DNA from: Nitrosopumilus sp.
GTDB lineage: Archaea > Thermoproteota > Nitrososphaeria > Nitrososphaerales > Nitrosopumilaceae
Direction of reading: 5' to 3'
Assembly: GCA_965238275.1 (NCBI GenBank)
Contig: OZ250186.1
Location: forward strand, 288,001 to 352,000
DNA: 64,000 nt
The position numbers and the translations under genes were made by a program. This document shows, piece by piece, positions 1 to 16,857 of this stretch (position 1 is the stretch's first letter; each line of letters opens with the position of its first letter). Below the pieces are notes generated by a model that made no database searches, had not been told where the DNA came from, and saw only the letters and a program-made list of their open reading frames with translations.

Positions 1-564
1 CGGATGCTGTATACAAATTATGGGAATGACGGGTGTTTTTACATGAATGCTGGGGGGCCAGCCCCCCAGACCCCCCGAAGGAGGATTATGCACGTCACCC
101 CGCGGGGCAAAAAGCCATTTTTCTGCTGATCCGGCAGGATTCTACTCGCAGGTAATGCTTAAGAAGACAAAAAACATACCCAAAGTGACAAGTTGGACGC
201 AAAACCTGGATAAGTCCGGGGATGGGTTAACATAGATGTGGATCCCAACCAACATCCATCCAACCAATACGTGTCAGATCACCCGATTTGAACAGAGTCT
301 CCATGGCCAACACAAGATCATCAGATCCACATGCCTTTCGTTTTATTTGGAACGAATTTTGGCGTGTCGCTATACATCAGGTCCTATGTCAACGAGCATT
401 CGAAGTCACTTCACAGGTAGCCGATAGACCAGCGATGGGTCAAGCAGCAGAGTCCGGATGTTTCGTTCATGATACCCGGTGTTTCCGCTAACATCAGGCA
501 AAATTTTGCCTAAAGTTACACCGTTCCAGATATAACTCGGCAAAAAGACCACACGTAATCTCGG

Positions 565-1221
565 TTAGTCCATTTTTGCTGATTCCTTTTTTATGAGATC
601 TGCCAGATTCTTATAATCCTCCCTTTCCTTGTCCGTTGCATGTTCCTTGCCCGGCATTTCCCACATCAGCCACGTCAATACTACGCTTTCATGTTCCAAT
701 GCTTCCAGTCGTTCCTTGTTGTATTTTGAATCACTTTCCACAGCAGCGTGCCTTGCCGCGACCTTCGGATCCGGTTCTATCCGCAGCCTCTCGGTGTCTG
801 CTGCCATCATATTGTCATAACATTTCAGCAGATCGTCTTCTGCCTTGGCCTTATCCCTCTTTGCTCCCAGTTCATCACGCACCTTTCTAAATGCGTTATA
901 GTTGGCTCTTTCCTCATCTGTTCGTCTCCGAAATTCCGGTTTGGGTTTCCATGCCGGCTTGGATATGGTTTTGATGTTACTGGCTTTATCCGTGGTCTTT
1001 CTTTGTGGTTCGGATTCTTCCGATTTCATCTTCTTCAGTGCTTCCTCTACGGTTTCCTGTTTCCCGACAATGAATCCATCCGTGCGTTCAAATATTCGGA
1101 GTTGCATGCCCTTCTCGATTTCCAGTCTTCCTGCAAGTTGTTTTGGTATTGTGAGTACCAAGCTGGTGTTGTTTGTCGTTACGGTGCGTATCCAGTCTCT
1201 TGCGATCTTCTTTTTTGCCAT
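565..1221 (-). CDS. AbrB/MazE/SpoVT-domain protein with charged helical C-terminal extension
   Basis: N-terminal SLVLTIPKQLAGRLEIEKGMQLRIF matches the swapped-hairpin AbrB pattern; ATG at 1221 with an AT-rich TATA-like region upstream. Confidence 0.7.
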   Translation of the reverse strand: MAKKKIARDWIRTVTTNNTSLVLTIPKQLAGRLEIEKGMQLRIFERTDGFIVGKQETVEEALKKMKSEESEPQRKTTDKASNIKTISKPAWKPKPEFRRRTDEERANYNAFRKVRDELGAKRDKAKAEDDLLKCYDNMMAADTERLRIEPDPKVAARHAAVESDSKYNKERLEALEHESVVLTWLMWEMPGKEHATDKEREDYKNLADLIKKESAKMD

Positions 1222-2050
1222 ACGCACGTCTTGTTTTTGACCAATTATAAGGATTTCTCAATTACATGTGTTTTACATGTAAAAAATAAGATTTGCAATA
1301 TACTATTTTTCTTATTCCCCCAATATTCTGTCAAAAACAGGTGTTAAATTCTGTCAAAATAAGACCAGTGATTCAACACCGTCTCTTAAACTGAACCAGA
1401 CTGAGTAGATCCAGTCAACCATTTGCCCCCTTCGGTGGTTTGTCCGGAAGCAACACGACGTATTACATTTGTAATACGGTGTTACATTCAAGAACTGACT
1501 GCCTGGATTTCAAGATTGTGATCCGATAATCCCCAACTTAGCCATACATCTTGTTCTTTCCCTGTCACGTCATTGAGATCCATACGGTGTCACTTCTTCG
1601 TAAGCAATTTTGGCACGTCGTTTTCCTGTTCCATCCCTCTGGTCCTTTCAGCCTGTCTCTGGTAGACCGGGTACACGCCTGGTAGCTGTCAACATGGCAG
1701 CCCGGGTACAGTCATACTTCTTGACTATGTCCTGAAACCCTGTCATTGTCTCTAGCCCGGTTTGTATTGAGAACTCTGTCCTCATGTCCTGTCCCCTGTT
1801 CCGGCCTTATCGACATAGACGTGGTTGGCGGCCTGGTAGATGTGATCAGATTCATACCAGACAGGGTACCAGAGGACAAAAACACCCTAGAGAACTTTGT
1901 ACATTTCAGATCTGTTCAACACCAGATTCGAGTAATATTCCGCCTCGGCTGTAGTCTCGGATTTCGCTTCGCGTTGGAGGTCGGCCTCCGGCTCCGCCTC
2001 CGGCCTCTCCCGGAACCGTCACCAGTAACCACCCCCACGAACGCCGCTAG

Positions 2051-2102
2051 GTCCCACACACAGCTCCCAGACACCGTTGCCCCATACGAGTCCCACACAC
2101 GA
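2051..2102. repeat. Four tandem degenerate 13-nt units
   Basis: gtcccacacacag / ctcccagacaccg / ttgccccatacga / gtcccacacacga. Confidence 0.6.
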
Positions 2103-2174
2103 GTATGGAGCCATCCCCATGATGTATCATTCGCTCCTACGGAATATCATGGAATCATTCCACTATGGAGTAAT

Positions 2175-2471
2175 ATCAGGCTCCGTTTGACTAGTGTCTG
2201 ACTACGTCAGACTATGTGTCGGGCTCCGCCCGACTAAGGTCCAACAAGGTTGGACTATAGACGGCCTACGGCCGTCTGAGAGCACGCCCCCCCTTGTTCT
2301 AGTGTCCGGCAAAGCCGGACTATGGTACGGCCATAAGGCCGTACATGTACATGAGATTCTCTTAGAGAATCTCTGGGCTCGGCCCTTGGGGGCCGTAGAA
2401 CCGGCCTTGTGGCCGGATGGTATAGAATCCCATCACGGGATTCACGGTACAGTCAAGCCTTATGGCTTGAC
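2175..2471. repeat. Tandem array of short hairpins (6-9 bp stems, mostly 3-5 nt loops)
   Basis: Stems at 2175-2191, 2196-2212, 2218-2234, 2239-2255, 2259-2277, 2279-2300, 2304-2320, 2325-2344, 2353-2373, 2380-2395, 2401-2416, 2425-2443, 2452-2471; each has a different stem sequence. Confidence 0.9.
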
Positions 2472-2718
2472 ATGGATCCATTGGCAGTTCACGGTTGAGA
2501 TATGCTCTTTGTGTGCGCAGACAACCGACGCCGAAGCCGGAAGAGGCATCGCAGCCATAAGAGATGCCGTCAGTAAGAGCCAAAAACCCAAAAAACGAAT
2601 AAAGATTCCGGCAAAGACAGTTACGCTCCTAACTTTTCAAATCTCGGCGTACGGGATTGATTGTAATCCGGCAATGATTTTCGTGTTCCCCCGCATCCAT
2701 GACAGTACTCACATACAA

Positions 2719-5700
2719 TTAGAATGTGCGGTAATCCAATATGGATTTGCCTGACTGTGCGTCGTCAGGCGGCACCGTGCCCGGCGGGACGTCATTTGAT
2801 GATGAGTCGTGCGGTGGCGGATCACCGTCTACCGGCGTATCATCTGATGGTTCATCATCAGGCCGTATGTCAGAATCATCACTTGACGGCGGATCGTCAT
2901 TTGGTGGCGGATCGCCAGTGTCGAATTCATCCGCGTCGGAATCCTCGGGTTCCGTATCCTCAGGCTTGGCAGACGTAATGATTCGCGTCTCACCGCCCTC
3001 ATGATCCATTATGAACGCCGTGACTTTTTCCTTTATCGGACCTTCCCCTATCCTGTCGTATTCATCTTCAAGTTCCTTGTTGAACGACCACGCGTGGTAT
3101 TCACTGAATCCGGATTCGACCCATTTTTGCATGTTCTGCCCTGCGAGCTCGGGGTGGGAATCAACTTTTCCCTCTGGCTCTATCCTCACGGATATCGGGC
3201 TGTCGGTGTTGTAGTCGTACGCGACCATGTCTATGTGGTGCCAGTCGTTTCGTCCAAGCTGAACCGCCATCTCCAGAAAAAACCCTTTCCCTAAATAATA
3301 TTCGGAGACTATGGGGATTGCCTCCTTTATGTCCAGCGTCTTGCCCACCTCGTTGGAGCCGAAGGACAACTTGCCCATTGCAAAATCCGTGAGGCTGTAT
3401 TTGCCCTTGCGTCCCTCATCTTGGGTTACAAGTTTGGCACCTATCATCTCCTTCAATATGTCAGCTATCTCGTCCCGTGCGCGCGTGCCAGAGATAGGCT
3501 TGTTCTGCGGGTTGTACAGCTCTGTTATGGCTGTCAAGCTGAACTGCCTGTGTTGCAGTATCCTCATGATGTGCCAGTGGTCGTGCGACGGGATCCGTTT
3601 GTCTGCCACGCTCATCTTCCAGCGATTCTTTTCCATTTTCTTGGCATCGAGCATCGATATTTCCGGTTCCCGGTTCATGTAGAGTTTCTTTTGAGACTGT
3701 ATGAATTCTTTCCATTCCTCGTCGGATATGTTGGAACGGCAGACCTCGTCTGCGACCGGGTCAAAGTGCGTCCAGAACTGCACCGGCAGCGGCATCTCTT
3801 GCCCGGCTTCCGGCGCTATCCTGGCAATCCAGTGGTGTTTTGGCTGCGTCGCTATCTTTTCCTTGATCTCGTTGGCGTATTTTGGATCCCACGCCGACGC
3901 CAGCCTCTGGGCGTCGTTACCCTCGAGATGCCCCGCCATCTGCAGCCCGAAGTTCGTGGTTATGCTGCTGAGTTTGTTGTCATCCAATTGTTTGAGGTTT
4001 TGGTGCGCGAGTATCAGCCCGAGGCCCTTTGATCTTGCCTGCGATATCATCGTCTCCAGCACCCCTATGCTCTTTATCTTTTGGAACTCGTCGAGCGCGA
4101 GCACTACCTGCGTCCTGTCCTTTATTGATACCGTGGACGAACGGAACGAGACCTCGAACCACAGTTTCATGACGAAAGCCTGCATTGCAATGCCTATCTT
4201 GTCAAGCCCGATATCTGACTCGCTGAACCTTACCACGGTGTAGTGCCCAGGCCTGATCAAATCGCGGAAATTTATCGTCGACTTGCGCCTGCAGAACATC
4301 TGCCTCATCGTGTTGCTCACGACGAATTTCTCCAGTCTGTTCAGTACGGGCTCGAACGACTTTGCGTCCATGTCTGCAATCGACTGGAGCGCCATGTCCA
4401 GATCTCCGCTTGGCTCTCCTAGCGCGTCGTACATCACGCGCAGATAGTTCTTATCTGTCTGGATGTTCTGGATCATCTCGTACATGTCCTTGAAAGTCGG
4501 CTTGTCTTCCCCGACGTACAGGAAGAGCAGCAGGCTGTGCAGGATGCGGTTCATCCGGACGAACGCGTCCGAGTTGCCGTACCAGCCCTTGATCATGTCG
4601 AAAAAGTACCCCACGTACAGGTCCACGATTGCGTCCCTGTCCTCCTTATCGTACGGCGGCAACTCCAGCGGGTTGAGCGTAAAGTAGGTCTTTGACGGAT
4701 CCAGGTAATGTATCTTGTCGCCGTATATGGTGGAGCGTTCACACTGCCGGAGCAAGAACTCGGTGTCGTCGCCCTTTGGGTCGAAATAAATACAGGCGTT
4801 GGACCAGCCTATGCCGAGCTCCCTGAGGGTCTTGTTCTGGTCGAGATCGGCCAGGAGTTTCTTTGTTTCCATGTCGCACGGGATCATCCTCACAGGCACG
4901 TCCTGCCGAAGAGAAGCGTACAGGTTTGCCATCTCCAGATGTTTAAACATCACCTTGATTATGGAACTCTTGCCGCTGCCTGTTCCGCCTGACACGTATA
5001 CGTGGCATGCAAAATCATCTGGGGACATGGTGACTGCATCGATGGCGCTGGGGGCGTATTCTCGTCCAAACTGCCTGTAATATTCTTCCTGGTTGAAGGT
5101 GTTCTGTGGTTCAAATCTTCCTATGTTGAACCCCGGTTTGTTTATCTGCTGCGACGGCAGGACGGCGCCCCGCGTGGTGCTGATGTTGGGGGTGGACGGC
5201 TTCGGCAGGTGTATGTATGTCGGCATCTCGTTTGGAAGCGCTATTATGAACGGCGGCGAGCGGCGCGGCTTGTAAGAGCCCATCATTCCCTTGCGCATGT
5301 AATTGTCAAATATCTCGTAGCCGAACTTTCGCACGTCTGGGAGCAGGCGGAATGGGAACATGTCTATGCGCTGTCTCATCGTGTGCTGCTGCTCGACGTT
5401 GATGTAATCGGCCTTGTCGAGATTGCGGTTGAAGAAAGACGAGTGCCTGTACTTGAACGTCGTGAGGTAGTCGTAGGCGCACCTGATTGGTTCGAACGAT
5501 ATGGAGCCCATCACGTTGATGTCTGATATCGTCCCGGTATCCACGAGTCCGCGTATCGAGACCATCGTGTGCGGCCCCTGTCGTTTTTTGACGGCATCGG
5601 CATGGAGTGTAGGATAGTTGGTTTGAAAGTCGCCGTTTGCCTCCGGGTGCTCCTTCCTTGCTTCGGGTTTCGGCTTTCCGCTGAAGTTGATCTTCATGCC

Positions 5701-6282
5701 GTCAAGGATGCTGCCTCCTGTAATGTTCTTCTGTATCTTGCTGCGGTGGGCGCTGATAATATTCACGTGCCTGTTGAGGAAATACGTAAAGTCGTACTTG
5801 CAAAATACGACCTGCACCCACGCGGACTGGGCGCCCTGTATGGTGTTGGCGATGTTGGACAGCACCCACTGGGCCTCGTCTTCCTTGAACGCGGCAGTGT
5901 AGTGGCCGTGGTAATATCCGACGTCGAATATCTTGTATGGTATGGTCTTGTCATAGAAATCAGGATCAGGTTTTTCAAGCGGGATTATTTGGGCCCCGGG
6001 GTACATGTTGAGGAATGCCTGTTTGTATATTTGCGCGTCATCAGGCACCGTGACAATCACTATTTTGAGTTTCTTGGTCTCCCCGTCCCACCATATCTCG
6101 AACGATCTCACGGTGTCCGATGCCAGGCCGGCCGCGGCGTGCTTGATCATGTTCTCGTCGGAGTTGAGCGGTACCAATACTTCCATCGCCTTGCGCTCGG
6201 CGCCTTGGCCGATAAAGTCGGTTATCCCGTCCAGCCTGCCTTTCTGCTTGCGCGCGTTTGATATACTCCAAGTGTTACCCAT
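2719..6282 (-). CDS. VirD4/TraD/HerA-like (FtsK-HerA superfamily) ATPase, conjugative coupling-protein-like, with C-terminal wHTH, nuclease-like segment and acidic tail
   Basis: Walker A HVYVSGGTGSGKS, YFDPKGD, Walker B LALDEFQ, ARSKGLGLILAHQ; 1187 aa. Confidence 0.8.
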   Translation of the reverse strand: MGNTWSISNARKQKGRLDGITDFIGQGAERKAMEVLVPLNSDENMIKHAAAGLASDTVRSFEIWWDGETKKLKIVIVTVPDDAQIYKQAFLNMYPGAQIIPLEKPDPDFYDKTIPYKIFDVGYYHGHYTAAFKEDEAQWVLSNIANTIQGAQSAWVQVVFCKYDFTYFLNRHVNIISAHRSKIQKNITGGSILDGMKINFSGKPKPEARKEHPEANGDFQTNYPTLHADAVKKRQGPHTMVSIRGLVDTGTISDINVMGSISFEPIRCAYDYLTTFKYRHSSFFNRNLDKADYINVEQQHTMRQRIDMFPFRLLPDVRKFGYEIFDNYMRKGMMGSYKPRRSPPFIIALPNEMPTYIHLPKPSTPNISTTRGAVLPSQQINKPGFNIGRFEPQNTFNQEEYYRQFGREYAPSAIDAVTMSPDDFACHVYVSGGTGSGKSSIIKVMFKHLEMANLYASLRQDVPVRMIPCDMETKKLLADLDQNKTLRELGIGWSNACIYFDPKGDDTEFLLRQCERSTIYGDKIHYLDPSKTYFTLNPLELPPYDKEDRDAIVDLYVGYFFDMIKGWYGNSDAFVRMNRILHSLLLFLYVGEDKPTFKDMYEMIQNIQTDKNYLRVMYDALGEPSGDLDMALQSIADMDAKSFEPVLNRLEKFVVSNTMRQMFCRRKSTINFRDLIRPGHYTVVRFSESDIGLDKIGIAMQAFVMKLWFEVSFRSSTVSIKDRTQVVLALDEFQKIKSIGVLETMISQARSKGLGLILAHQNLKQLDDNKLSSITTNFGLQMAGHLEGNDAQRLASAWDPKYANEIKEKIATQPKHHWIARIAPEAGQEMPLPVQFWTHFDPVADEVCRSNISDEEWKEFIQSQKKLYMNREPEISMLDAKKMEKNRWKMSVADKRIPSHDHWHIMRILQHRQFSLTAITELYNPQNKPISGTRARDEIADILKEMIGAKLVTQDEGRKGKYSLTDFAMGKLSFGSNEVGKTLDIKEAIPIVSEYYLGKGFFLEMAVQLGRNDWHHIDMVAYDYNTDSPISVRIEPEGKVDSHPELAGQNMQKWVESGFSEYHAWSFNKELEDEYDRIGEGPIKEKVTAFIMDHEGGETRIITSAKPEDTEPEDSDADEFDTGDPPPNDDPPSSDDSDIRPDDEPSDDTPVDGDPPPHDSSSNDVPPGTVPPDDAQSGKSILDYRTF

Positions 6283-7295
6283 CAGGGATTACCCCCATGA
6301 AAAAGATGGTTCGCTGAATTACGGGGAATTGTACACAAAGGCTGCACAGCCTCCGGCTGCAGGCGCCTGCCTTTGTCCGATGCCCCGGCGGTTCCTCCCG
6401 TGTTTGGCACCTGCACGACCTTACTTGAGGCGTCGGAGCGGCCGAGTTCAAGTTGCATCCGGATCCTCGCGCATTTCGTCTGCCTTTCCTGCGACCGCCC
6501 GAGCGCAGGCCCATGGGTATTTTTTGCCGTATTGGCATCGGCGTGTCTGCATGAAACGCAAAGAGATCCCCCCTGTCCCGGGTTTTTCTATCAGCCCTTC
6601 TGCAGGCATCACACGCGTCGCCGGCGTTGTGCGGTGGGACATGGATTGTTTTTGCGGCAGCGCGTACGGCCCCGTGGACAACACCAAGCATGGCAGCGCA
6701 TTGCCGCCCGCCCGCCCGCATCAAATCATGCACGTGCCACACGGGAACCAGATTCCCGCATGGATCACGGCATGTCATCGGGTCTGCCAAGTTTTCCTTT
6801 ACGGTAAAATTGAAAAGGCGCCTGTGACAAACGACGATGCCGTAAATCTTCTTGAATATCTCCGGGAATTGCCTAGCGTCGGGGATGCTCATATGGGTAA
6901 TGGCACGTTGAGCACGATCATTCAGATATGTGGTACCGTTTTGTACCGTAGTTTTTTTCATTTATGTTGTATGTTACCACACCAGATATTTAAATCTGTA
7001 AAAATTCAAAAATTCATAAATTTGCTTGATTTGGCCCATGTTAACTGTCCCAAGATATGCGCACGGGGTTAGACAAATACGCAAGTAGTCCTGATGAGGC
7101 AATGGCCAGGGCCATAACACAGGTAGCCGATAGCGTCTTGCCTGATATGGTAGAATCTGTTCGTGTGACGACATAGAATCTATTTGTGCTTGTCGAGCCT
7201 GCACTGAAGATCAAAAATTCGTGCACGGCATCATGTATTTTCTGCCGGCAAGTTTGGGAAGAACGAGCATGAACCTGTCGGTTTGATGGCATAAT

Positions 7296-9076
7296 AGAGA
7301 ATATGCGTAATCCCCTATTCACATCGATAAATTTAGATCAGGCACGATCGCGTCTCACATCAAATGCCAGACTCGCCTGATCAGATCATATCCAAGTTAC
7401 AGCAGGAAAACAAAAGCCTAAAAAATATTCTAAATCAAAAAGACAAAAAGCTGGAGCAGAAAGACAAAAAGCTGGAGCAGAAAGACAAAAGCCTAAAAAA
7501 TATTCTAAAGCAGAAAGACAAAAAGCTGGAGCAGAAAGACAAAAAGTTGGAGCAGAAAGACAGGGAGCTGGGCCTTGAGCGCGGCCTGTGGAAGAGCAGG
7601 GACGATGGCTGGAACCCCGGCAAGGGACCCGCGCTGCACCTGCTAGAGGTGCTAGACGGCATAATACGCGACGGGGACAAGCTCCGTCAGGCCACGCTGG
7701 CAGACGGGGAACAGTTCCGGTACATGCTGGAGCGGGCCAAGGTATTCCTGGTGCATTCGGGCCAGATGCCGCTGTTCCGCGATAACGCATCCCGGGCATC
7801 CGATCCCGGAAACCGGTGCAAGCTGTACCTGAGGCACGCGCTGCTCATGGCACTTGTCCACAAAAAGGACAACCCCGCCCAGGGCGTGCTTGCCGCGTTC
7901 TTCGGGATAGACCAGACCACCGTGTCCCGGTACCTTCCGGTGATGGACGCGATGCTGGCAGGAATACTCCCGACGGCAGACAACATATCCGAGGAGGTAG
8001 CTGCCGCCCCGACCAAGGAGGATTTCAAGAAGATCGTGCCCGGGCCAGACGGGGGCGAGATATTCATAGACGGCACGCGCTGCTCATGGCACTTGTCCAC
8101 AAAAAGGACAACCCCGCCCAGGGCGTGCTTGCCGCGTTCTTCGGGATAGACCAGACCACCGTGTCCCGGTACCTTCCGGTGATGGACGCGATGCTGGCAG
8201 GAATACTCCCGACGGCAGACAACATATCCGAGGAGGTAGCTGCCGCCCCGACCAAGGAGGATTTCAAGAAGATCGTGCCCGGGCCAGACGGGGGCGAGAT
8301 ATTCATAGACGGCACGCACTGCCCCATACAGCGCCCGTCTGTAAAGTCAGTCCGGCGCATGAAATACTCCGGCAAGAAGAAAAAGTTCACCAATAACACC
8401 AACGTGTACACCAACCAGAACGGGGTGGTGATCGGCATGTCAAAAAGCACCGTCGGGTCAGTCGGCGACATCACGCTGCTCAAGGAACGCCCCATGCCGT
8501 TTGGAAAGTGGGAGAAGGCGATGCACGATCCGGACCTGCCAGAATCAGACAGGTGCCACCCCTTCGTCGACCGCGGCTACCAGGGAATCGCAGACCACCT
8601 GCCCGGCACCACGCCGGAGATCCCGTACAAGAAGACCAAAAAGACGCCGCTGACGCCGGAGCAAAAAAAGCACAACCACAGGATCAACTCCACCCGGGTG
8701 TTGGTGGAGCACACGATAGGCAGGCTCAAGCGCTACGCGCGTCTTGCCGACCCGTACGACGGCAACGCAGCCGGGTTCAACAGGGAGTTCAACGTGATCA
8801 CCGGGCTGGTAAACCTGAACCTTTTGTGGGACTGCATGGAAAAGGGTCCGCCGCCACCGGGGCAGTGGAAGACGTCAGTAGACTGGGACAGGGCCTGCTC
8901 CGAAGCTCCGGTCAAGTAGAATTCAGGGCACGATGAAGTGCTGCAAGGCTGCGCACGTCATTTTGGATTTTGGGGTGAACAGACTTGCCACATACACGAC
9001 ACGAGCAGTTTTAGGCCGTATTTTTCCGGTTTTTTATGGCCGGGTTGGCAAAATGGGTGGATTACGCATATCTTCT
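7296..9076 (+). mobile_element. IS5-family (ISL2/Harbinger-like) element, copy 1
   Basis: TIRs agagaatatgcgtaatcc / ggattacgcatatcttct; 3-bp TSD AAT (7293-7295, 9077-9079). Confidence 0.88.
7364..8919 (+). pseudogene. DDE_Tnp_4-type transposase, frameshifted by an internal 239-bp tandem duplication
   Basis: IFIDGTHCPIQRP, YSGKKK, VDRGYQG, VEHTIGRLK motifs; split into ORFs 7364-8149 and 7816-8919; intact paralog at 58836-60035. Confidence 0.88.
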
Positions 9077-9748: not shown

Positions 9749-10360
9749 TGGTGTAGCCGCGTCTTCGCGGCCGTGCATCGGAGATTACTATGGACTCGTC
9801 CTGTATCGCTACGACTGTCCCTTCGCTGTTCTTTTTTTTATAAGCTCTGGCAGCTCTTTTTGGAATTTCCTGATCTCCTCGTCAGGTGCCCTTCTTGCAT
9901 GCTTTCCTACCGGGACCTTCTGGGAGTAGCCCCAGCTCCGCAGCATGTACCGCACGTGCGTGAGGTTGTACTTTACCCCCGTCTTCTGCCTGATGTATTC
10001 CCGCATCTCCCTGCCCGTCCAGATCAGCTTACTGCGCGCGTTTTTCCGAATCCGCCCCATGTCTGTCCTGCTTACCTTGGTCGGCCTGCCGGAGCGCGGA
10101 AGGTTTCCCAGCCTGTCAAAGCCGACTTCCCGATAGCGTTTGTGCCACTTGTAGCCCCACGCCGGCGACTTGCCAAGGGATTTTGCAGCATCGCTCATGG
10201 CTGCTCCATCGCGCTTGATCATGATTATCAGCATCATGCGATCCTTGACATTGCAGTCTTTCTCAGCGGCGTATCTTTTCAACATCGTCTTGATCTTCAT
10301 TGACTATGTGATTCGGGATGAGCATAACACTGCATGCGAAAAAAATCTTTTACAATCGTA
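9749..10360 (-). pseudogene. Truncated IS630-family element (N-terminal ORF 9809-10300 plus start of DDE domain)
   Basis: Close paralog of 57251-58230, including the A8 slippery tract; cut off shortly after the QDES motif. Confidence 0.82.
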
Positions 10361-10574
10361 TGTAAGAGGTCGCCTTTGCGAAGCGATTCCGTGCCTGATC
10401 TGTTCCGATTAATTACCAACTGAGCTACGTTTTTGACCATAAATGCCCGATTAATTGCACGTTATCAACACGGTCCTCAGGCAGGGTGGTTTTCGGATCA
10501 AGGCTCTTCCGGTTGGATCTTTTGCGCCGCATTTTCCGGCAGGCGCTGCGTGCCCAAAAGCTTTATGGATCATG

Positions 10575-11928
10575 AACTTTGTTTCCTAATTATCCCCAGC
10601 CACGCCCAACAGATCCAGAATCAGGTCGGACCAGCTGAATTTGAACACATTATCAAGCATCTTCAATAGAAAACCACATTGATCAGAGAGGTGTGCAGAC
10701 AGTCAGGTTATCGCCATGACTGAAAACACATCCTCTCCAGACAAAACGGGCACGCATGAGGCTAAAAAATCTTTCAAATCCAAAGAACGCCGGTTCCAGT
10801 ACGATGACCGCAGGTACATAGACCGCGGCCAGTTGTGGACGCTCCAGATAAGCCCGGAGATCCTGACTCAGGGGGTCGAGAAGCTAAACTGCGGGAAGGT
10901 AGGCCGCCCGTACGTATTTTCAAACGCGTGCTTTGCAGCAGCATCCCTGTTCAAAAACGCCACCGGCATAAGGTACAGGCAGCTCCAGGGTCTGGCAGAG
11001 ACGATAGTCGGCAAGGAAAACGCGCCCACGTACTCGGCGTTCCAGAAGAGGATGACCAAGCTTGGCTGCACTGTTGCAGACAATGATGATGGTAGCGGCA
11101 CGGCTTCTGCGTGGTTCTCAGACGGCGGCACCCGGGCCGAGATCAAGCTGTTTGCCTTCGACTCCACTGGACTCAAGCCCACAAACCGCGGCGACTGGAT
11201 GACAGAAAAGTGGGGGACCAGGCGGGGCTTCATAAAGCTGCACGTCGGGGTGGATGCCAAAACCAAAAAGATCTACGCCGTGGCCATAACCGACGACAAG
11301 TGCGGGGACTCTCCGCAGTTTGAGGAACTGGTGGGGCAGGCCCTTGCAAATGCAAAAAAATCACCAAACTCAGACACTTCTGCAGGCACCAAGGCGGCAG
11401 CCGACGGCGCGTACGACACCCAGAAGATCCGCAGGTACTGCGACGAGCAGGGAATCGAGCCGCTGATTCCCGTCCGCATCGACTTTGCCGGAAAGGCGAA
11501 CGGGTGCATGCCCCGCAAGGAGGCAGGATTCAGGCAGCTGGGGGACCTGGACTGCATGGACAAGACGGCAGAACGCAAGTTTGCAGGCCTCACGCGCGAA
11601 CAAAAGAGGGAATTCCAGAAGGCGTGGCGCAGGGAGTCAGGGTACAACGACCGGTGGTCAGTCGAGATTGTATTTTCCACGTTCAAGCGGGTGTTGGGCG
11701 AGTGCATAAGCGCGCGCAAGTGGGAGAACGTCAAGGCCGAGATATACGGAAAGGTGCAGCTGTACAACCAGATGATCGATACTGCAATCGACAACGGGTA
11801 CGGCACGCCAAGGATCGTGCAAGCCTACAAGCCCGGCCCAAGGACTGCAAGGGAAGGGGGCAAGACGACGACGTAGGCAGAATTGCACAGACGAGTATCT
11901 GTGTCGAGCGTAATTAGGAAACAGAGTT
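10575..11928 (+). mobile_element. IS5-family (IS903/ISH1-like) element, copy 1, 1354 bp
   Basis: TIR aact(t/c)tgtttcctaatta; 8-bp TSD GGATCATG (10567-10574, 11929-11936). Confidence 0.92.
10716..11876 (+). CDS. IS5-family DDE transposase
   Basis: FDSTGLK...KLHVGVD, ADGAYD, YNDRWSVEIVFSTFK motifs. Confidence 0.92.
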   Translation: MTENTSSPDKTGTHEAKKSFKSKERRFQYDDRRYIDRGQLWTLQISPEILTQGVEKLNCGKVGRPYVFSNACFAAASLFKNATGIRYRQLQGLAETIVGKENAPTYSAFQKRMTKLGCTVADNDDGSGTASAWFSDGGTRAEIKLFAFDSTGLKPTNRGDWMTEKWGTRRGFIKLHVGVDAKTKKIYAVAITDDKCGDSPQFEELVGQALANAKKSPNSDTSAGTKAAADGAYDTQKIRRYCDEQGIEPLIPVRIDFAGKANGCMPRKEAGFRQLGDLDCMDKTAERKFAGLTREQKREFQKAWRRESGYNDRWSVEIVFSTFKRVLGECISARKWENVKAEIYGKVQLYNQMIDTAIDNGYGTPRIVQAYKPGPRTAREGGKTTT

Positions 11929-13594
11929 GGATCATGCCTTCCCGTGTTATGGCGTGGTGCCTGTAATCGACTTGGAAAAGATTGACTGGGACTCCGTAAC
12001 CGACACCAAGTCCCTCTTCGAATCCGTCTTGGACATGCTCAAATCCAAGGACGAGGAGAGCATGGCACTGAGAAAAGACATCGAGCAGCTGAAGGAGGAG
12101 GCAGAGGCCTTCTCAGGGGAACATGCGATGCTGACGGAGATGGATGCCAGGATCAAACTGCTGGAAGAAGAGAATGTGCAAAAGGACTCCGAGATAGAGA
12201 AGCTGCGGGCAGAAAACGCCGCCCTCCTACAGGGATGCGACGTCTCGCAGGCAGTCATGGACAGGATAGCCCGCCTGGAACAGCAGGCATCAGAGCATGC
12301 CTCTCAGTTAAGGGAGGCGCGCGCGGCCAACTCGGCGCTGGCAGCCGAGAATCTGGGCATCAAAAGCCGCCGCTCCAAGAAGCGGCTCCGGGAATCACCC
12401 GGGCCTGCACCAGACCCGTTCAGAAAGGTCGTCTGCCTGCGCACCGGCCGTGATCCTCCCCCGATATCCGAAAAAAAGATAGTCGACATGTCCGCCTGCC
12501 CGCACGGCCACGCCCTATCGACAGAACCCACCGAGGTAACCTTCCGGGTAGTCGAGGAGATCATCGACGGGAAACTGACCGGCATCCAGTATACCATTAT
12601 TCGCAGGTACTGCAGGGAATGCGGCAGGCAGTTTGCCCCCGAGATCCCGGGAGTCGTCCCCGGTGGGCGGTTCGGCGCCAGCCTGACGTGCCTTGAGACG
12701 ACGATGAGGATGTACGGCATTCCCTACGAAATCATCCGCAAGCTGATCAACATAATCCACCACACAAACCTTGCAAAGTCGACTGTCATCGGCCACGTGG
12801 ATGCCGTGACAGGATCCCTCCACCCGCTCTACGAGGAGATGCTCGAGGATATGTTCTTCTCAGGGCATGTCTTTGGCGACGAGACCAGCTGGAGGGTAGC
12901 CGGTGTGCTGTACTGGCTGTGGATACTAGTCGGCTCCGACTCGGCTGTCTTTTACGTGGACAAGCGCCGGGGAGGAGACGTGCTGGAGGCCCTGCTTGGA
13001 GGGTACGCAGGCCACGTCACCTCTGATTCACACGCTGCGTGGAACCGCATCGGCAGGACCCACCAAAAGTGCCACTACCACTACCTCCGCGAGATCCTCC
13101 GCACCCTGACCATGAAAAACCCGGGGCCAGAATTCAAAAAGTTTGCCAAGGCCCTAAAGGGGATAATCATCGATTCCTGGCACGCAGAGAAGGGACTCAA
13201 CCCGCATGACGACAAGGCCGCGCGAAACCTCAAGGTGCGCAACCTCCTGGCCCGGGTAAGGCGCCTGATGTCTGGCAGCTACACCGAACCCCACTGCAAG
13301 CGGTTTGTCAAGCGGCTGCGGCGCGAGATCACCCACCTGTTCCCATTCATCCGCCTCAACACAAAGTGCCATAACAACGACGCCGAGCGCCCCCTGCGGC
13401 CCAGCGTCTCATCCCGGAATGTCTCAGGCGGCAGCAAGAGCCTTGCCGGCGCATACAACCACGCCGTCCTGGCCAGCATCCGCGAGACGTGCAGGATGCG
13501 CGGCGTCAACCCGCACGACTTTTTGGTAGACTACATGCGAGGTATCGTCGAAAGGATACCGGCAACAGCAGCAGCGGCAGCAACAACTGCATAA
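11927..13594 (+). CDS. IS66-family transposase (start uncertain, abuts IS5 end)
   Basis: Coiled coil, CPHGH...CREC zinc finger, GDETSW, SDSHAAW, HQKCHYH, NNDAERPLRP. Confidence 0.88.
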   Translation: MDHAFPCYGVVPVIDLEKIDWDSVTDTKSLFESVLDMLKSKDEESMALRKDIEQLKEEAEAFSGEHAMLTEMDARIKLLEEENVQKDSEIEKLRAENAALLQGCDVSQAVMDRIARLEQQASEHASQLREARAANSALAAENLGIKSRRSKKRLRESPGPAPDPFRKVVCLRTGRDPPPISEKKIVDMSACPHGHALSTEPTEVTFRVVEEIIDGKLTGIQYTIIRRYCRECGRQFAPEIPGVVPGGRFGASLTCLETTMRMYGIPYEIIRKLINIIHHTNLAKSTVIGHVDAVTGSLHPLYEEMLEDMFFSGHVFGDETSWRVAGVLYWLWILVGSDSAVFYVDKRRGGDVLEALLGGYAGHVTSDSHAAWNRIGRTHQKCHYHYLREILRTLTMKNPGPEFKKFAKALKGIIIDSWHAEKGLNPHDDKAARNLKVRNLLARVRRLMSGSYTEPHCKRFVKRLRREITHLFPFIRLNTKCHNNDAERPLRPSVSSRNVSGGSKSLAGAYNHAVLASIRETCRMRGVNPHDFLVDYMRGIVERIPATAAAAATTA

Positions 13595-14033
13595 ATCCTG
13601 CAAAATCCATCCATGGCTGCCCTGCATGTCCTGCGCGACTCCCGTCGCACCGGTTGCCTGACACGTATCAGGCCGCCGTACCGGCCCTCCACCAGATTCG
13701 GGCACAACGCACCGCCCCGGCAGCACCAAAAAAGATCCACTTCGCAAGTCCGATCACCGGATCGGCCAAAACGCAGCTCAGCCGAGCCTCACCCCGCCCG
13801 GAAAAAATCCTGAATAATGCCAATCAAATGGGCATTTACGGCCCAAAACGTAGCTCAGTTGGTAATTAATCGGGGCAGATCAGGCACGAAATCGCTTCGC
13901 AAAGGCGACCTCTTACAAATAAACCCGATTTGTAAAAGGTGGGATTACTTTACAGGCAAACTTGTGTGACTGTTGGATTTGTGATTCAGGTCGGTAGGGC
14001 TTCATAAGGAGGCAGTCGTGTAGGCATCTAAAC

Positions 14034-14789
14034 TCATCTTTCCCTTGCAGGGCTTCCCGTGCCAAATATTTTCAGCGCCGTCTCCCCCTGCTTTTGGATT
14101 GATACCTCGCTCCTCCTACCCCTTGACTTGACAGAGATCAGGCTCCAGTCCCTCTCCATCGGATCAAGCAGTACCCGCAACCTGCTATGCTTTGCAGAAC
14201 CACCGAGTTCTTTCCCATCCACATCCGAGAGACTGATCACACCCATCTCTTCAAGTTCTTTCATAAGCTGAGCCTTACGCATGACACCACCATGTCTACT
14301 CAGTAGATCCAAAATCAACATGAACTCCTGCTTTGGTTTGTTGATGCTGTACGTGGGGAGATCCTCCGGTTCGTCTACGTGCTCTGAGAGGTCTACAATT
14401 TTCTTCCTCCCGACGTACGAGACAGGGGCGTAATACGGATGTGCATTCCACATCATACACGATAGCATACCTGCTATGGACGTGATCTTGGTGCCGGTCG
14501 AGACATTGACGTAGACATGATTCTCCTTTGCATCCAAGATGATCTTGCGAAACCCCTCCACACACTTGTACAGATTCCACAGATCCAAAGAGATCTCCTC
14601 TACATGGATGTGCTTGTAATTCTGTTTCAGTTCGTTCTTTACTTTAGTGTAAAATACTAGTGCGTCGTCATCAATCTCGGTGTGTTTCACAAGGTATACT
14701 AGATCCGCACGCATCTGTATGAGCGGCTGGGTCACGCGCCGGAATTCGAATCCTACAGGAGATATGTGTATCCTAAGCTTGGTCTGCAA
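14034..14789 (-). CDS. HFX_2341/DUF6293-like CARF + winged-helix transcriptional regulator
   Basis: RIHISPVGFE N-terminus, CARF-type VYVNVSTGTKITSIA motif, C-terminal wHTH ending SRGRRSEVSIQKQG. Confidence 0.82.
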   Translation of the reverse strand: MQTKLRIHISPVGFEFRRVTQPLIQMRADLVYLVKHTEIDDDALVFYTKVKNELKQNYKHIHVEEISLDLWNLYKCVEGFRKIILDAKENHVYVNVSTGTKITSIAGMLSCMMWNAHPYYAPVSYVGRKKIVDLSEHVDEPEDLPTYSINKPKQEFMLILDLLSRHGGVMRKAQLMKELEEMGVISLSDVDGKELGGSAKHSRLRVLLDPMERDWSLISVKSRGRRSEVSIQKQGETALKIFGTGSPARER

Positions 14790-15135: not shown

Positions 15136-15521
15136 TACCAGACAGGCTACTGCAAGACACCAACATGCTAAAGGCAAGAGGCTTTAACCTCAGCCTTATT
15201 GAGCGTGATGGGAAGGTGTATGTGGAATTCAAGGACTTTCCACTCCCAGAAGGCGTATACAGTATGGACACTACCAACTTGATTATCTTTACTAGTCCGC
15301 ATTACCCTTGCGCATCGTTTGATATGTTCTGGACGTTGCCTGAGTTGGTCATGAAAGACGGTCCCGTCCCCAAACAGGCAGAGGTCATAGAGACCCACTT
15401 GGGAAGAGAATGGAGGCGGTTCAGCTACCACCCATATCAAAATGTCACTTGGAATCCTTCTGACGATAATGTCGTAAAGTATGTAGGGTATGTACAGCAA
15501 AGGTTGCAAAACGGCGATTGA
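15132..15521 (+). CDS. Prokaryotic E2/UBC-fold protein (family E-like)
   Basis: DFPLPEGVY, YP..SFDMFW, WRRFSYH, WNPSDDN motifs; GTGA overlap with Ubl gene. Confidence 0.8.
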   Translation: MIPDRLLQDTNMLKARGFNLSLIERDGKVYVEFKDFPLPEGVYSMDTTNLIIFTSPHYPCASFDMFWTLPELVMKDGPVPKQAEVIETHLGREWRRFSYHPYQNVTWNPSDDNVVKYVGYVQQRLQNGD

Positions 15522-15522
15522 A

Positions 15523-16857
15523 ATGTGGACTATCACATTCCCTAAGCCCCTGTACAAGGAACTGGAAGAGTTTTTGTTCAGCACAGCACCATACGAGAAC
15601 GGGTGCTTTTTGCTAGCGCAGGCATATGATGCTGGCAAGAGATCCATGCTACTTGCCACGGACATCCTAAAACCTGCTGAGGGATCTTGGAACTCCCAAG
15701 GAAGGCACAGCCTTATGCCTAGCTCGTCGTTTATCAATGAATGCGTCGTAAGGTCGGAGGCGACCAAATCCAGCCTAATCTTTGTGCACACCCACCCAGA
15801 TACTGCACACCCTCCAACATTCAGCAAGATAGACAGGATAACCAACAGGAAGATGTTCACAAACCTCTCTGAGATCGTGCCTGGACGACCACTAGGTAGC
15901 CTGGTGTTCAGCAGGCATGGTGTTTCCGGAGTCGTGTTTGATAAGGCTAGAATCTCTAGCGTCAAACGTGTAAAGATAGTGGGCAACACTCTGACTGAGT
16001 GTAATACTATCGGGACCAACGCCAGATCGTCCAAGACAATGGCCATGTTTGAGAGGCAGACCAGAGCGTTTGGCACACATGTTCAACAACAGATCCAAAA
16101 CATGTCGGTGACTGTCATAGGAGTCGGTGGCACGGGTTCGTCTGTGTCAGTCCAGCTCGCAAGGATGGGTGTGAAACACATACGGTTGGTGGACATGGAC
16201 CACGTCGACGAGTCCAACCTTACAAGGATATATGGCTCAAGAAAGTCAGATGTGGGCAGGATGAAAGTAGACGTGCTGAGGCGTCACATTATGTCGTTTT
16301 CAAGATCCACAGTGACTGCGATATGTGCCAACGTGTTAGATGACTCTGTACTCAATGCGCTGATAGAGTCAGATGTCATGTTTGGATGTACTGACAACCA
16401 CATAAGCCGGCACAGACTCAACGAGATCTCGAACAGGTTCTACATCCCGTTAATTGACGTGGGGTGCAGGATAGATGTGGACGATGCCGGATCGATATCT
16501 CAGGCAGTAGCAAAGATTCAGGCCGTCACACCGGAAAGCGCGTGCCTGTGGTGCTCTGGTACCCTTGATGGCAGAACCATGTTGCAGGAATCGTTGCCGG
16601 AGGAAGAAAAAAAGAAGCTCGCAGAAGAAGGATACTACGAAGAGGTCGGCAAGCAGCCCAGCGTAATATCGTTGACCACGCTGGCTGCCAGCATGGCGGT
16701 CAACAAGTTCCTTGGCATCGTAGGCGCGATTGAAGATGAGTCAGGTACGAGGCTGCAAGTGGAACTGAGGGGCGGTTTCATGATCAGCGATGTGCCAGAG
16801 ATAAGGGCAGAATGTGTCTGCCGAAAGAATATGGGCGTGGTGTTCCGTAACGCCTAA
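15523..16857 (+). CDS. JAB/MPN+ metalloprotease fused to ThiF/E1 adenylation domain
   Basis: ENGCFL, HTHP...FSKID (JAMM); VIGVGGTGS, DMDHVDESNLTR, GCTDN, CLWC and CVC zinc ligands. Confidence 0.88.
   Translation: MWTITFPKPLYKELEEFLFSTAPYENGCFLLAQAYDAGKRSMLLATDILKPAEGSWNSQGRHSLMPSSSFINECVVRSEATKSSLIFVHTHPDTAHPPTFSKIDRITNRKMFTNLSEIVPGRPLGSLVFSRHGVSGVVFDKARISSVKRVKIVGNTLTECNTIGTNARSSKTMAMFERQTRAFGTHVQQQIQNMSVTVIGVGGTGSSVSVQLARMGVKHIRLVDMDHVDESNLTRIYGSRKSDVGRMKVDVLRRHIMSFSRSTVTAICANVLDDSVLNALIESDVMFGCTDNHISRHRLNEISNRFYIPLIDVGCRIDVDDAGSISQAVAKIQAVTPESACLWCSGTLDGRTMLQESLPEEEKKKLAEEGYYEEVGKQPSVISLTTLAASMAVNKFLGIVGAIEDESGTRLQVELRGGFMISDVPEIRAECVCRKNMGVVFRNA

Follow-up and report, generated by a model that had tools for sequence, protein, structure and literature searches.

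What are eleven perfect hairpins, all different in sequence and packed into 276 bases of an archaeal genome, doing next to a gene for a conjugation-type ATPase? The locus is a tandem array of short hairpins in Nitrosopumilus sp., situated in a window of 64,000 nucleotides (positions 288,001 to 352,000 of contig OZ250186.1, assembly GCA_965238275.1, forward strand); coordinates refer to this window unless the genome or another locus is named. Very stable hairpins, able to form on both strands, are selected or maintained here in a fixed place of the non-coding control region beside the gene for the coupling ATPase. The array is tentatively read as a cis-acting DNA hairpin cluster belonging to the origin-type region (replication or transfer) of a mobile element, and locally amplified; this is the explanation we favour, at somewhat less than an even chance. 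The main rival is a hairpin array that acts as transcribed RNA. The following sections examine the array itself, its context here and in related elements, the explanations that compete for it, and its standing among known systems.

Layout and sequence of the array

Eleven perfect Watson–Crick hairpins, with stems of 6-9 bp and loops of 3-5 nt, were found in 2196-2471 by a repeat finder and by our own scan. The first three, at 2196-2212, 2218-2234 and 2239-2255, each have a 7-bp stem and a 3-nt loop. They are followed by hairpins at 2259-2277 (8 bp, 3 nt), 2304-2320 (7 bp, 3 nt), 2325-2344 (8 bp, 4 nt), 2353-2373 (9 bp, 3 nt), 2380-2395 and 2401-2416 (both 6 bp, 4 nt), 2425-2443 (7 bp, 5 nt) and 2452-2471 (8 bp, 4 nt). 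All 80 pairs of these units are perfect, and 58% of the 276 bases lie inside perfect stems. The units are 16-21 nt long, most of the gaps between them measure 2-8 nt, and the centre-to-centre spacings are 22, 21, 21, 44, 22.5, 28.5, 24.5, 21, 25.5 and 27.5 nt. A decayed unit occupies the 44-nt gap (2279-2300; six pairs on the + strand, one of them G.T, around a 10-nt loop with a C7 run at 2287-2293), and an imperfect unit lies in register to the left of the array (2175-2191; six pairs on the + strand, two of them G.T). The inverted repeats further upstream, at 2117-2162, are weaker and not of the same kind; they consist of 7-bp arms 22 nt apart (2117-2123 and 2146-2152) and a 6-bp near-palindrome (2150-2162). 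The preliminary description had counted 12-14 hairpins at 2107-2471; eleven perfect and two imperfect units remain of this count, whereas 2107-2170 contains only the weaker repeats.

Chance was assessed with 2000 dinucleotide-preserving shuffles of 2196-2471, a comparison that the preliminary description had proposed and that confirms the array as real. Eleven hairpins of at least 6 bp are observed, compared with a shuffle mean of 0.26 (maximum 4); for stems of at least 7 bp, the figures are nine and 0.07 (maximum 3). The whole genome (2,216,668 bases) holds 2492 such hairpins, or 1.12 per kb, and the array, with 11, is its densest 300-bp cluster; the runner-up has six and falls within a GCT/GCA trinucleotide repeat. 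Both strands fold exceptionally well, with z-scores of −8.5 (+ strand) and −9.1 (− strand) when folded as RNA, and of −12.5 (+ strand) and −11.3 (− strand) when folded as DNA.

The array was rightly set apart from CRISPR at the outset; its units all differ, and there are neither a constant repeat nor spacers. Four units share the frame GTC-NNNC-nnn-GNNN-GAC, and three further units are close variants of it. Although the inner positions of the four framed units vary, their inner pairs are complementary in 12 of 12 cases. The covariation of inner pairs that had been noted within this frame holds for four units, with a count that is partly due to construction. At least eight different arm sequences occur among the eleven units. 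When seven units of 17 nt are aligned without gaps, five of the seven pairs prove to be changed on both sides and 98% of cells pair; the covariation score of this alignment, which none of 500 shuffles reached, describes the array and is no test of it, because the units were picked as hairpins.

The closure of the loops is independent of how the units were chosen. A 5'C-G3' pair closes 11 of 11 loops here, and 630 of 2418 (26%) in the other hairpins of the genome. Since the units are perfect palindromes, the closure is valid on both strands, and its universality suggests that what is selected is a stable hairpin and not the half-site of a protein. A possible preference for G(N)NA loops on the strand co-oriented with the AbrB-like gene (see below) was discarded; it applies to three of the six triloops here and to several tetraloops of related elements, but it was noticed post hoc and one relative contradicts it.

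Pairing in the array and 12 related stretches amounts to 370 Watson–Crick, one G.T, five A.C and five other pairs (381 in total), a tally that omits the two decayed units (2175-2191 and 2279-2300) and the three G.T pairs that these hold. In the preliminary description, G.T pairs had been taken to mark the + strand as the folded one. There is no general G.T excess on one strand and both strands fold equally, so this inference fails. Stems with almost nothing but Watson–Crick pairs and equal folding of both strands are expected for DNA, or where there is a need to fold on both strands. The wider claim of selection on structure is upheld in the sense that there is selection on, or a process maintaining, intrastrand pairing rather than sequence.

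Gene context and related elements

The array sits between converging reading frames. To its right is the gene for the TraG/VirD4-type coupling ATPase (1187 aa; 2719-6282, − strand), whose stop lies 248 nt from the array; a location just downstream of a VirD4/HerA-like ATPase, as originally described, is thus correct. To its left is the remnant of a small gene (1812-1907, + strand), whose homologue in the nearest relative (47% over 32 aa) is the first rightward gene of the element. Both the array here and a mini-array in that relative are placed 3' of this gene, on its strand. Further left, operator-like palindromes and short direct repeats (1262-1478; 1262-1282 and 1459-1478) are found upstream of the gene for an AbrB-like protein of 220 aa (565-1227, − strand), which has a weak N-terminal SpoVT/AbrB (MazE-type) match below the Pfam cut-off.

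Forty-five further ATPase loci were fetched, giving 46 loci for positional counts when this window is included; the relatives counted are kin and not independent. Usually the ATPase gene is followed by a small gene convergent with it; beyond this come repeats of iteron-like or palindromic type, then a conserved TCGCA(A)T(T)ATAC-like motif, and finally one to four perfect hairpins. Across related loci, clusters of one to seven perfect hairpins occur beside the same gene pair, with sequences that differ and with compensatory changes. Of ten small convergent genes tested, seven match MazE/SpoVT-AbrB at E<=0.01, two of them above the cut-off, and one more was matched in another search. The density of perfect hairpins of at least 7 bp peaks in two bins after the ATPase stop (+250 to +500, with 1.65 per kb, and +500 to +750, with 2.61 per kb); the 20 bins upstream of the stop have 0.09-0.96 per kb. 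When this window is left out, the two downstream bins keep 12 and 29 hairpins.

The motif looks like an archaeal BRE/TATA-type promoter; in the nearest relative, the distance from its start to the ATG of the small gene is 40-41 nt. Of the 18 loci that have the motif, 13 carry a perfect hairpin that starts 53-76 nt past it and differs in sequence from locus to locus, often with one to three more behind. AT-rich elements have the hairpin between the motif and the start codon of the first gene, and several GC-rich loci have no co-oriented open reading frame (ORF) after the hairpins. Compensatory changes affect 11 of 16 predicted pairs in nine GC-rich loci. In the window, the sequence TTCGC-TCC-TAC at 2131, 65 nt before the first perfect unit, resembles the motif of the relatives; it is a lead at most, as it fails the pattern and scores −2.4 bits.

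The nearest relative, whose ATPase is 73% identical, contains a mini-array of three to four units about 220 nt 3' of the small gene, twice in the element. The order of AbrB-like gene, palindromes, small gene and hairpin array is the same there and here. By context, the array is therefore homologous to the clusters of the relatives, but the block from the AbrB-like gene to the hairpins is inverted here relative to the ATPase gene, unlike in the relatives. By sequence alone the array is unique; several units look like the second hairpin of the relatives (GTCRGGC...GCCYGAC). The suggestion of an undescribed system is thus only half right: the array is unique by sequence, but related elements repeatedly have a hairpin cluster next to this gene pair, and the array is an enlarged case of it. 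A probable frameshift near residue 647 breaks the ATPase gene of the nearest relative into frames of 737 and 641 aa (locus L013, 10001-13718).

Other elements vary in their surroundings. In one AT-rich relative, a G+C-rich iteron island is flanked by six perfect hairpins of at least 7 bp, all of them inside 300 bp. A pair of inverted repeats of about 28 nt (L015, 8500-8541 and 9403-9447) brackets a 0.9-kb segment that includes these hairpins, and an IS6-family transposase gene is present twice, 6.66 kb apart; together, these features suggest an inversion or insertion. Hairpins adjoin iteron-like tandem repeats in several elements. One relative has about 14 tandem copies of a 21-bp unit directly after the hairpins (L067, about 5880-6180; the same repeat is found in L068), and other relatives carry, at about this place, six copies of a 42-bp repeat, six copies of a 9-bp repeat or long repeats of 15 bp; the iteron-like arrays differ in every lineage. 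A contig of 16.8 kb (L017) carries genes for an MCM helicase fragment, a Dam methylase, a prepilin peptidase, TraG-like and AbrB-like proteins and a collagen-repeat protein, and may be a complete or nearly complete small element. A scan of further genome contigs found only the nearest relative, and scans of metagenome and viral contigs with the ATPase alignment gave three and six weak or short loci. In the genome itself, a second ATPase paralogue (genome 455,035-456,471) is followed after 630-810 nt by three hairpins, which were not counted as a further cluster; they lie in coding-looking DNA.

The ATPase passes the Pfam cut-offs for TraG-D_C and TrwB_AAD_bind. Its N-terminal domain of about 400 aa is family-specific, with an invariant H-G-H and several invariant Tyr. 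The C-terminal part contains a MarR-like winged helix (profile E about 1e-3); the conserved domain behind it has D, S, E, E, N, K and W as invariant residues. The C-terminal 308 residues have no Pfam match, and no shorter homologues of the C-terminal domain were found. Within a class-wide sample of 401 genomes, the three-domain form is present only in the family Nitrosopumilaceae, and elsewhere the ATPase core alone was matched; ATPase homologues occur in 51 of 401 genomes sampled from the family.

The array and its neighbouring genes form part of a unique island (about 300-7285), bounded on the left by an IS110-family insertion sequence (IS) copy, whose end occupies 1-238, and on the right by a multi-copy IS end. 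Two ORFs of unknown function on the − strand, of 228 aa (6275-6961) and 93 aa (7041-7322), lie upstream of or overlap the ATPase gene and are unique to the island. No VirB4-type gene was found in the genome in a PF03135 search. The island looks like a decayed, IS-bounded remnant of a conjugative-type element. Its region is rich in insertion sequences, with transposases of at least five families; from −10000 to 14000 of the window, a dense IS graveyard includes DDE_Tnp_1, DDE_Tnp_4 (several copies), IS110, IS3-type rve and IS66. The IS end of about 100 bp at 7285-7398 has at least 14 further copies, and the frame at 7386-7799 at least 15. Further afield, a gene for a CARF/Csa3-like regulator (HFX_2341_N and DUF6293 winged helix; 14034-14789, − strand) adjoins one for a ThiF/E1-like protein (15490-16857, + strand), and the two may constitute a defence or signalling pair. 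About 17 kb to the left of the window, the genome encodes a fused restriction-modification enzyme of Eco57I/MmeI type with 1176 aa (genome 268,092-271,622, − strand).

A proposed origin-type DNA site and competing explanations

On the favoured explanation, the array would be an amplified version, with 12-13 units, of the hairpin cluster found in the ORF-free, repeat-rich control region of archaeal conjugative-type elements. When this region is unwound or single-stranded at the initiation of replication or transfer, each unit would snap into a short and very stable hairpin, on either strand. The cluster would then present a landmark, defined by structure, to the DNA-processing proteins of the element. 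Candidate readers are the winged helix of the ATPase together with the adjoining C-terminal domain of unknown fold, and the AbrB-like protein; that a winged helix might read a hairpin is suggested by analogy only, with Rep-Arvir (see below). Action at the level of DNA, a role at the origin and the identity of the reading protein are what we infer here. A bolder version, which we regard as speculative and unlikely, makes the cluster the cis site of relaxase-free archaeal conjugation from Sulfolobales to Nitrosopumilaceae, read by the C-terminus of the ATPase with help from the AbrB-like protein and free to expand in copy number to a dozen units. The ATPase would in that case bind the folded hairpins and start DNA processing there.

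A number of observations weigh against a cis-acting origin-type cluster. With 6-9 bp, the stems are on the short side for extrusion as cruciforms from duplex DNA. The array itself has no DNA-level relative in 150 other genomes of the genus. Because the relatives are kin, the counts overstate independence, and some of the palindromes at +250 to +500 are operator-type repeats and not hairpins that follow the motif. The fixed distance from motif to first hairpin would suit an operator or a transcribed leader no less than it suits an origin. A covariance model (R2) of the conserved leader motif and two hairpins, built from the nine GC-rich loci, found at E<=1 over 47 sources only its own nine training sequences and nothing in the window; within 1200-2800 it gave only weak partial matches, the best at 6.1 bits (E 0.095), from the hairpins only, with the leader at −2.4 bits. 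Homology of the array to the clusters of the relatives is thus not shown by sequence model. The small-gene remnant is broken and no promoter motif was seen for it in the window. As for a reading protein, the C-terminal domain of the ATPase has no sequence match in the PDB when searched as a single sequence and only the winged helix when searched as a profile, with no nuclease indicated. The island being a decayed remnant with an inverted block, the array may no longer be in use. Finally, archaeal conjugation might transfer double-stranded DNA, no relaxase being known according to the relevant part of PMC6563490, and the origin in the corresponding region of Sulfolobus plasmids is, in the text available from PMC4390865, only predicted from Z-curve, GC-skew and repeat arguments.

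The main rival, transcribed RNA, is possible but ranks below the DNA site. Transcription of one strand would start at a promoter diverging from the AbrB-like gene, and the opposite strand would be transcribed within the 3' tail of the ATPase mRNA. The hairpins could then be a leader, an insulator, a 3'-end element or a small structured RNA, with control over transcript stability or over read-through between the converging units. The promoter-like motif and the 53-76 nt that separate it from the first hairpin in 13 of 18 loci are in keeping with this, as is the location of the hairpin within a 5' leader, from motif to start codon, in AT-rich elements; the GC-rich loci that lack a co-oriented ORF after the hairpins are arranged as a small RNA gene would be. 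The array also lies between converging frames, and compensatory changes are observed. Perfect palindromes fold on both converging transcripts, which would explain stems with Watson–Crick pairs only. Functional RNA stems, however, usually tolerate G.U, and here it is nearly absent (1 of 381 pairs) and A.C is commoner. Three-base loops dominate, there is no match in Rfam, and the missing promoter motif of the small-gene remnant counts against a transcript as well. No T-run follows any unit on either strand, so the units are not the usual archaeal or bacterial intrinsic terminators. Across the genome, 24% of hairpins are intergenic, set against about 19.5% of non-coding sequence, which gives no sign of a general use at gene ends.

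Neutral amplification is an unlikely explanation, and we place it clearly behind RNA. A palindromic unit of 21-22 nt would have been amplified in tandem within a decaying element, its copies being kept perfect by template-switch palindrome correction. Such a process suits an IS-bounded remnant with a broken small gene and an inverted block, in a genome where PF03135 found no VirB4-type gene. It also agrees with the 21-22-nt period of units 0-6 and their related arms, which fit tandem duplication, and with an array that is unique by sequence, includes two decayed units and has counterparts of one to 12 copies in different elements. What it accounts for less readily is that 80 of 80 pairs and 11 of 11 C-G closures are intact beside a broken gene, and that the arms have diverged at most positions while each pair has stayed complementary. 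The recurrence of clusters at the same place in otherwise unalignable lineages, including another archaeal phylum, is a further difficulty.

We think it improbable, more so than neutral amplification, that the units are operators. Dimeric regulators, either the AbrB-like protein or the ATPase through its winged helix, would bind them as double-stranded palindromes. A phasing of two helical turns would allow a cooperative nucleoprotein complex to assemble, similar to the complexes of plasmid centromeres and iteron arrays. The perfect dyad symmetry, the 7-3-7 geometry, the 21-22-bp spacing of units 0-6 and the adjoining genes for DNA-binding proteins are all compatible with this; GATTCTC-nnn-GAGAATC-like palindromes recur elsewhere in three related elements, and operator-type palindromes are certainly present nearer the AbrB-like genes. 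A half-site reader, though, would not need inner pairs that vary and yet remain complementary in 12 of 12 cases. The 11 units have at least eight arm sequences, the later units are spaced 24.5-28.5 nt apart, and the universal C-G closure of the loops is a feature of folding. An artefact of assembly or sequencing is very improbable indeed: palindrome-rich DNA can be error-prone, but the genome is a single 2.2-Mb contig of 99.9% completeness, similar clusters occur in independent assemblies, and the units all differ, so that there is no collapsed or chimeric repeat.

The choice between these explanations matters for how archaeal elements move. The accessible text of PMC6563490 and PMC4390865 identifies neither a relaxase nor an oriT for the initiation of replication or transfer in archaeal conjugative elements. 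The cluster beside the coupling ATPase gene would provide a testable candidate for the cis-acting site and for the domains that read it. This window is the most extreme example seen, and its 11 perfect units in 276 bases would lend themselves to assays of binding, nicking or probing. If the array is instead an RNA element or the product of neutral amplification, it is an ordinary, if striking, lineage-specific repeat.

Comparison with known systems

A match to a known Rfam family had been named among the results that would remove the novelty of the array. There are no matches at the gathering threshold over the whole window, and at E<=10 the stretch 1900-2750 gives only five chance-level matches of 13-18 bits (gathering scores 40-111). 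A blastn search with the array matched none of 72,556 plasmid and 50,697 phage records. For the larger stretch 1228-2718, the same 150 genomes of the genus contain nothing similar apart from two matches of 31-45 nt near the AbrB-like gene. As regards methods, a single-sequence model of three hairpins (R1) was abandoned, being too sequence-specific for a generic array detector, and MAFFT aligned overlapping hairpin windows by identity. A literature search found no description of such a hairpin cluster in archaeal elements.

Several classes were considered and rejected. A coding role was suggested by an ORF of 186 aa (2194-2754, + strand) that spans the array; it has no Pfam match, and in tblastn against the fetched loci and its own genome it matches only itself. 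Integron attC sites are imperfect and 57-141 nt long, whereas the units here measure 16-21 nt with no ORFs between them; no search was aimed at IntI. A bacterial-type oriT was set aside, as Pfam revealed no relaxase family among the neighbouring ORFs. A reading of the array as a collection of palindromes from other elements is unconvincing: 6-mers of the arms recur in 15 of the 200 hairpins that lie near ATPase genes in relatives and in 26 of 940 elsewhere, and this sharing is driven by GGCCGG-type words and kin loci. Nor is there a link to tRNA genes or att sites; neither the window nor the 20 kb left of it contains a tRNA gene, and none adjoins the hairpins in 26 loci.

Tandem hairpin clusters are already known in bacteria, as are inverted repeats beside conjugation genes. 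Bacterial oriT regions, such as those of R388 and RP4, have an inverted repeat beside the nic site, near a small gene for an accessory DNA-binding protein and the coupling-protein gene. The array resembles them in its non-coding inverted repeats, its divergent promoter or promoters and its adjoining genes for a small DNA-binding protein and a VirD4-type ATPase. It differs in that oriT contains one or two longer inverted repeats and not a dozen mini-hairpins, and in that neither a relaxase gene nor a nic consensus is known on the archaeal side.

Repetitive extragenic palindromes (REP/BIME) and NTS/SRM hairpins of bacteria are likewise short DNA hairpins in tandem whose shape matters, some of them with conserved feet and a compensated middle, as set out in part of PMC11893778. 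They are dispersed in many copies with a conserved sequence and a cognate enzyme gene, for a RAYT transposase or for an Ssn single-strand nuclease of GIY-YIG type; the array is a single locus in an archaeal host. A REP/BIME assignment was therefore rejected: there is one cluster and no dispersal, and the 53 GTC...GAC-framed hairpins of the genome form no family like the units of the array. A search for Y1 (IS200/RAYT) transposases with PF01797 gave no matches in this 99.9%-complete genome, the control search having matched six of 14 control genomes. An NTS/SRM-Ssn array was also rejected, the units being without the oriented motif that belongs to the definition excerpted from PMC11893778; the sole GIY-YIG match of the genome, in a frame of 529 aa at position 1,426,930, is about 1.1 Mb from the array.

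The Rep-Arvir rolling-circle origins, from viruses and plasmids of archaea, offer a different parallel. There, too, a structure-dependent hairpin lies downstream of the gene for a MarR-like winged-helix protein; stem mutations that preserve structure are tolerated, and a winged helix fused to a nuclease reads the hairpin origin (PMC13107129, in the portion available). They differ in having a single conserved hairpin with a binding repeat, and an enzyme that is a Rep_trans-like nuclease, according to the same portion of PMC13107129.

Conjugative plasmids of Sulfolobus come closest in gene order. In tblastn, residues ~353-1080 of the ATPase match their TraG-like proteins at 21-24% identity, with 36 plasmid records matched. 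The available text of PMC4390865 describes section B of these plasmids (pNOB8, pING1, pKEF9, pTC1 and others) as ORF-free, with multiple repeats and a putative replication origin, and reports a relaxase to be absent from them. The thaumarchaeal integrative and conjugative elements similarly have VirD4 and VirB4 homologues and no relaxase, as far as the corresponding part of PMC6563490 goes; hairpins and oriT are not mentioned in its text as covered by a term search.

In all five Sulfolobus plasmids compared, a TraG-like gene is followed by a small convergent ORF and then by a stretch with few or no ORFs. Four of them have perfect hairpins 1128-1679 nt past the TraG stop: pNOB8 has five, pTC1 four, and pING1 and pHVE14 a single one apiece, with none there in pAH1. 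Within the TraG-like gene itself, pNOB8, pAH1 and pING1 share a separate hairpin, GTAAACT-GGGG-AGTTTAC, close to the 3' end and ~230-240 nt short of the stop; related TTTACT-GGGG/CCCC-AGTAAA palindromes recur in pTC1.

There are differences as well. Section B contains one to five hairpins over about 550 nt, against 11 back to back here, and its conserved TCTATACCCCC / TAAGGGGC-type elements are not present in this window. Four of the five plasmids share one hairpin of conserved sequence, TAAGGG(G)C-loop-G(C)CCCTTA, whereas the thaumarchaeal hairpins vary; one arm of a hairpin found here in the Sulfolobus plasmids contains a conserved word that PMC4390865, in the text available, quotes for other plasmids. 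The small ORF of pTC1 and pNOB8 gave no AbrB match, and the hairpin block here is turned round with respect to the ATPase gene. The likeness lies in the combination of direct repeats with perfect hairpins, in the many hairpins whose 3-nt loops are closed by C-G (in pTC1, for example, an 8-bp stem with a TCC loop), and in ATPases that are homologous over about 700 residues, including the C-terminal part. Across the two archaeal phyla the place of the cluster is kept, and its sequence turns over by compensatory change.

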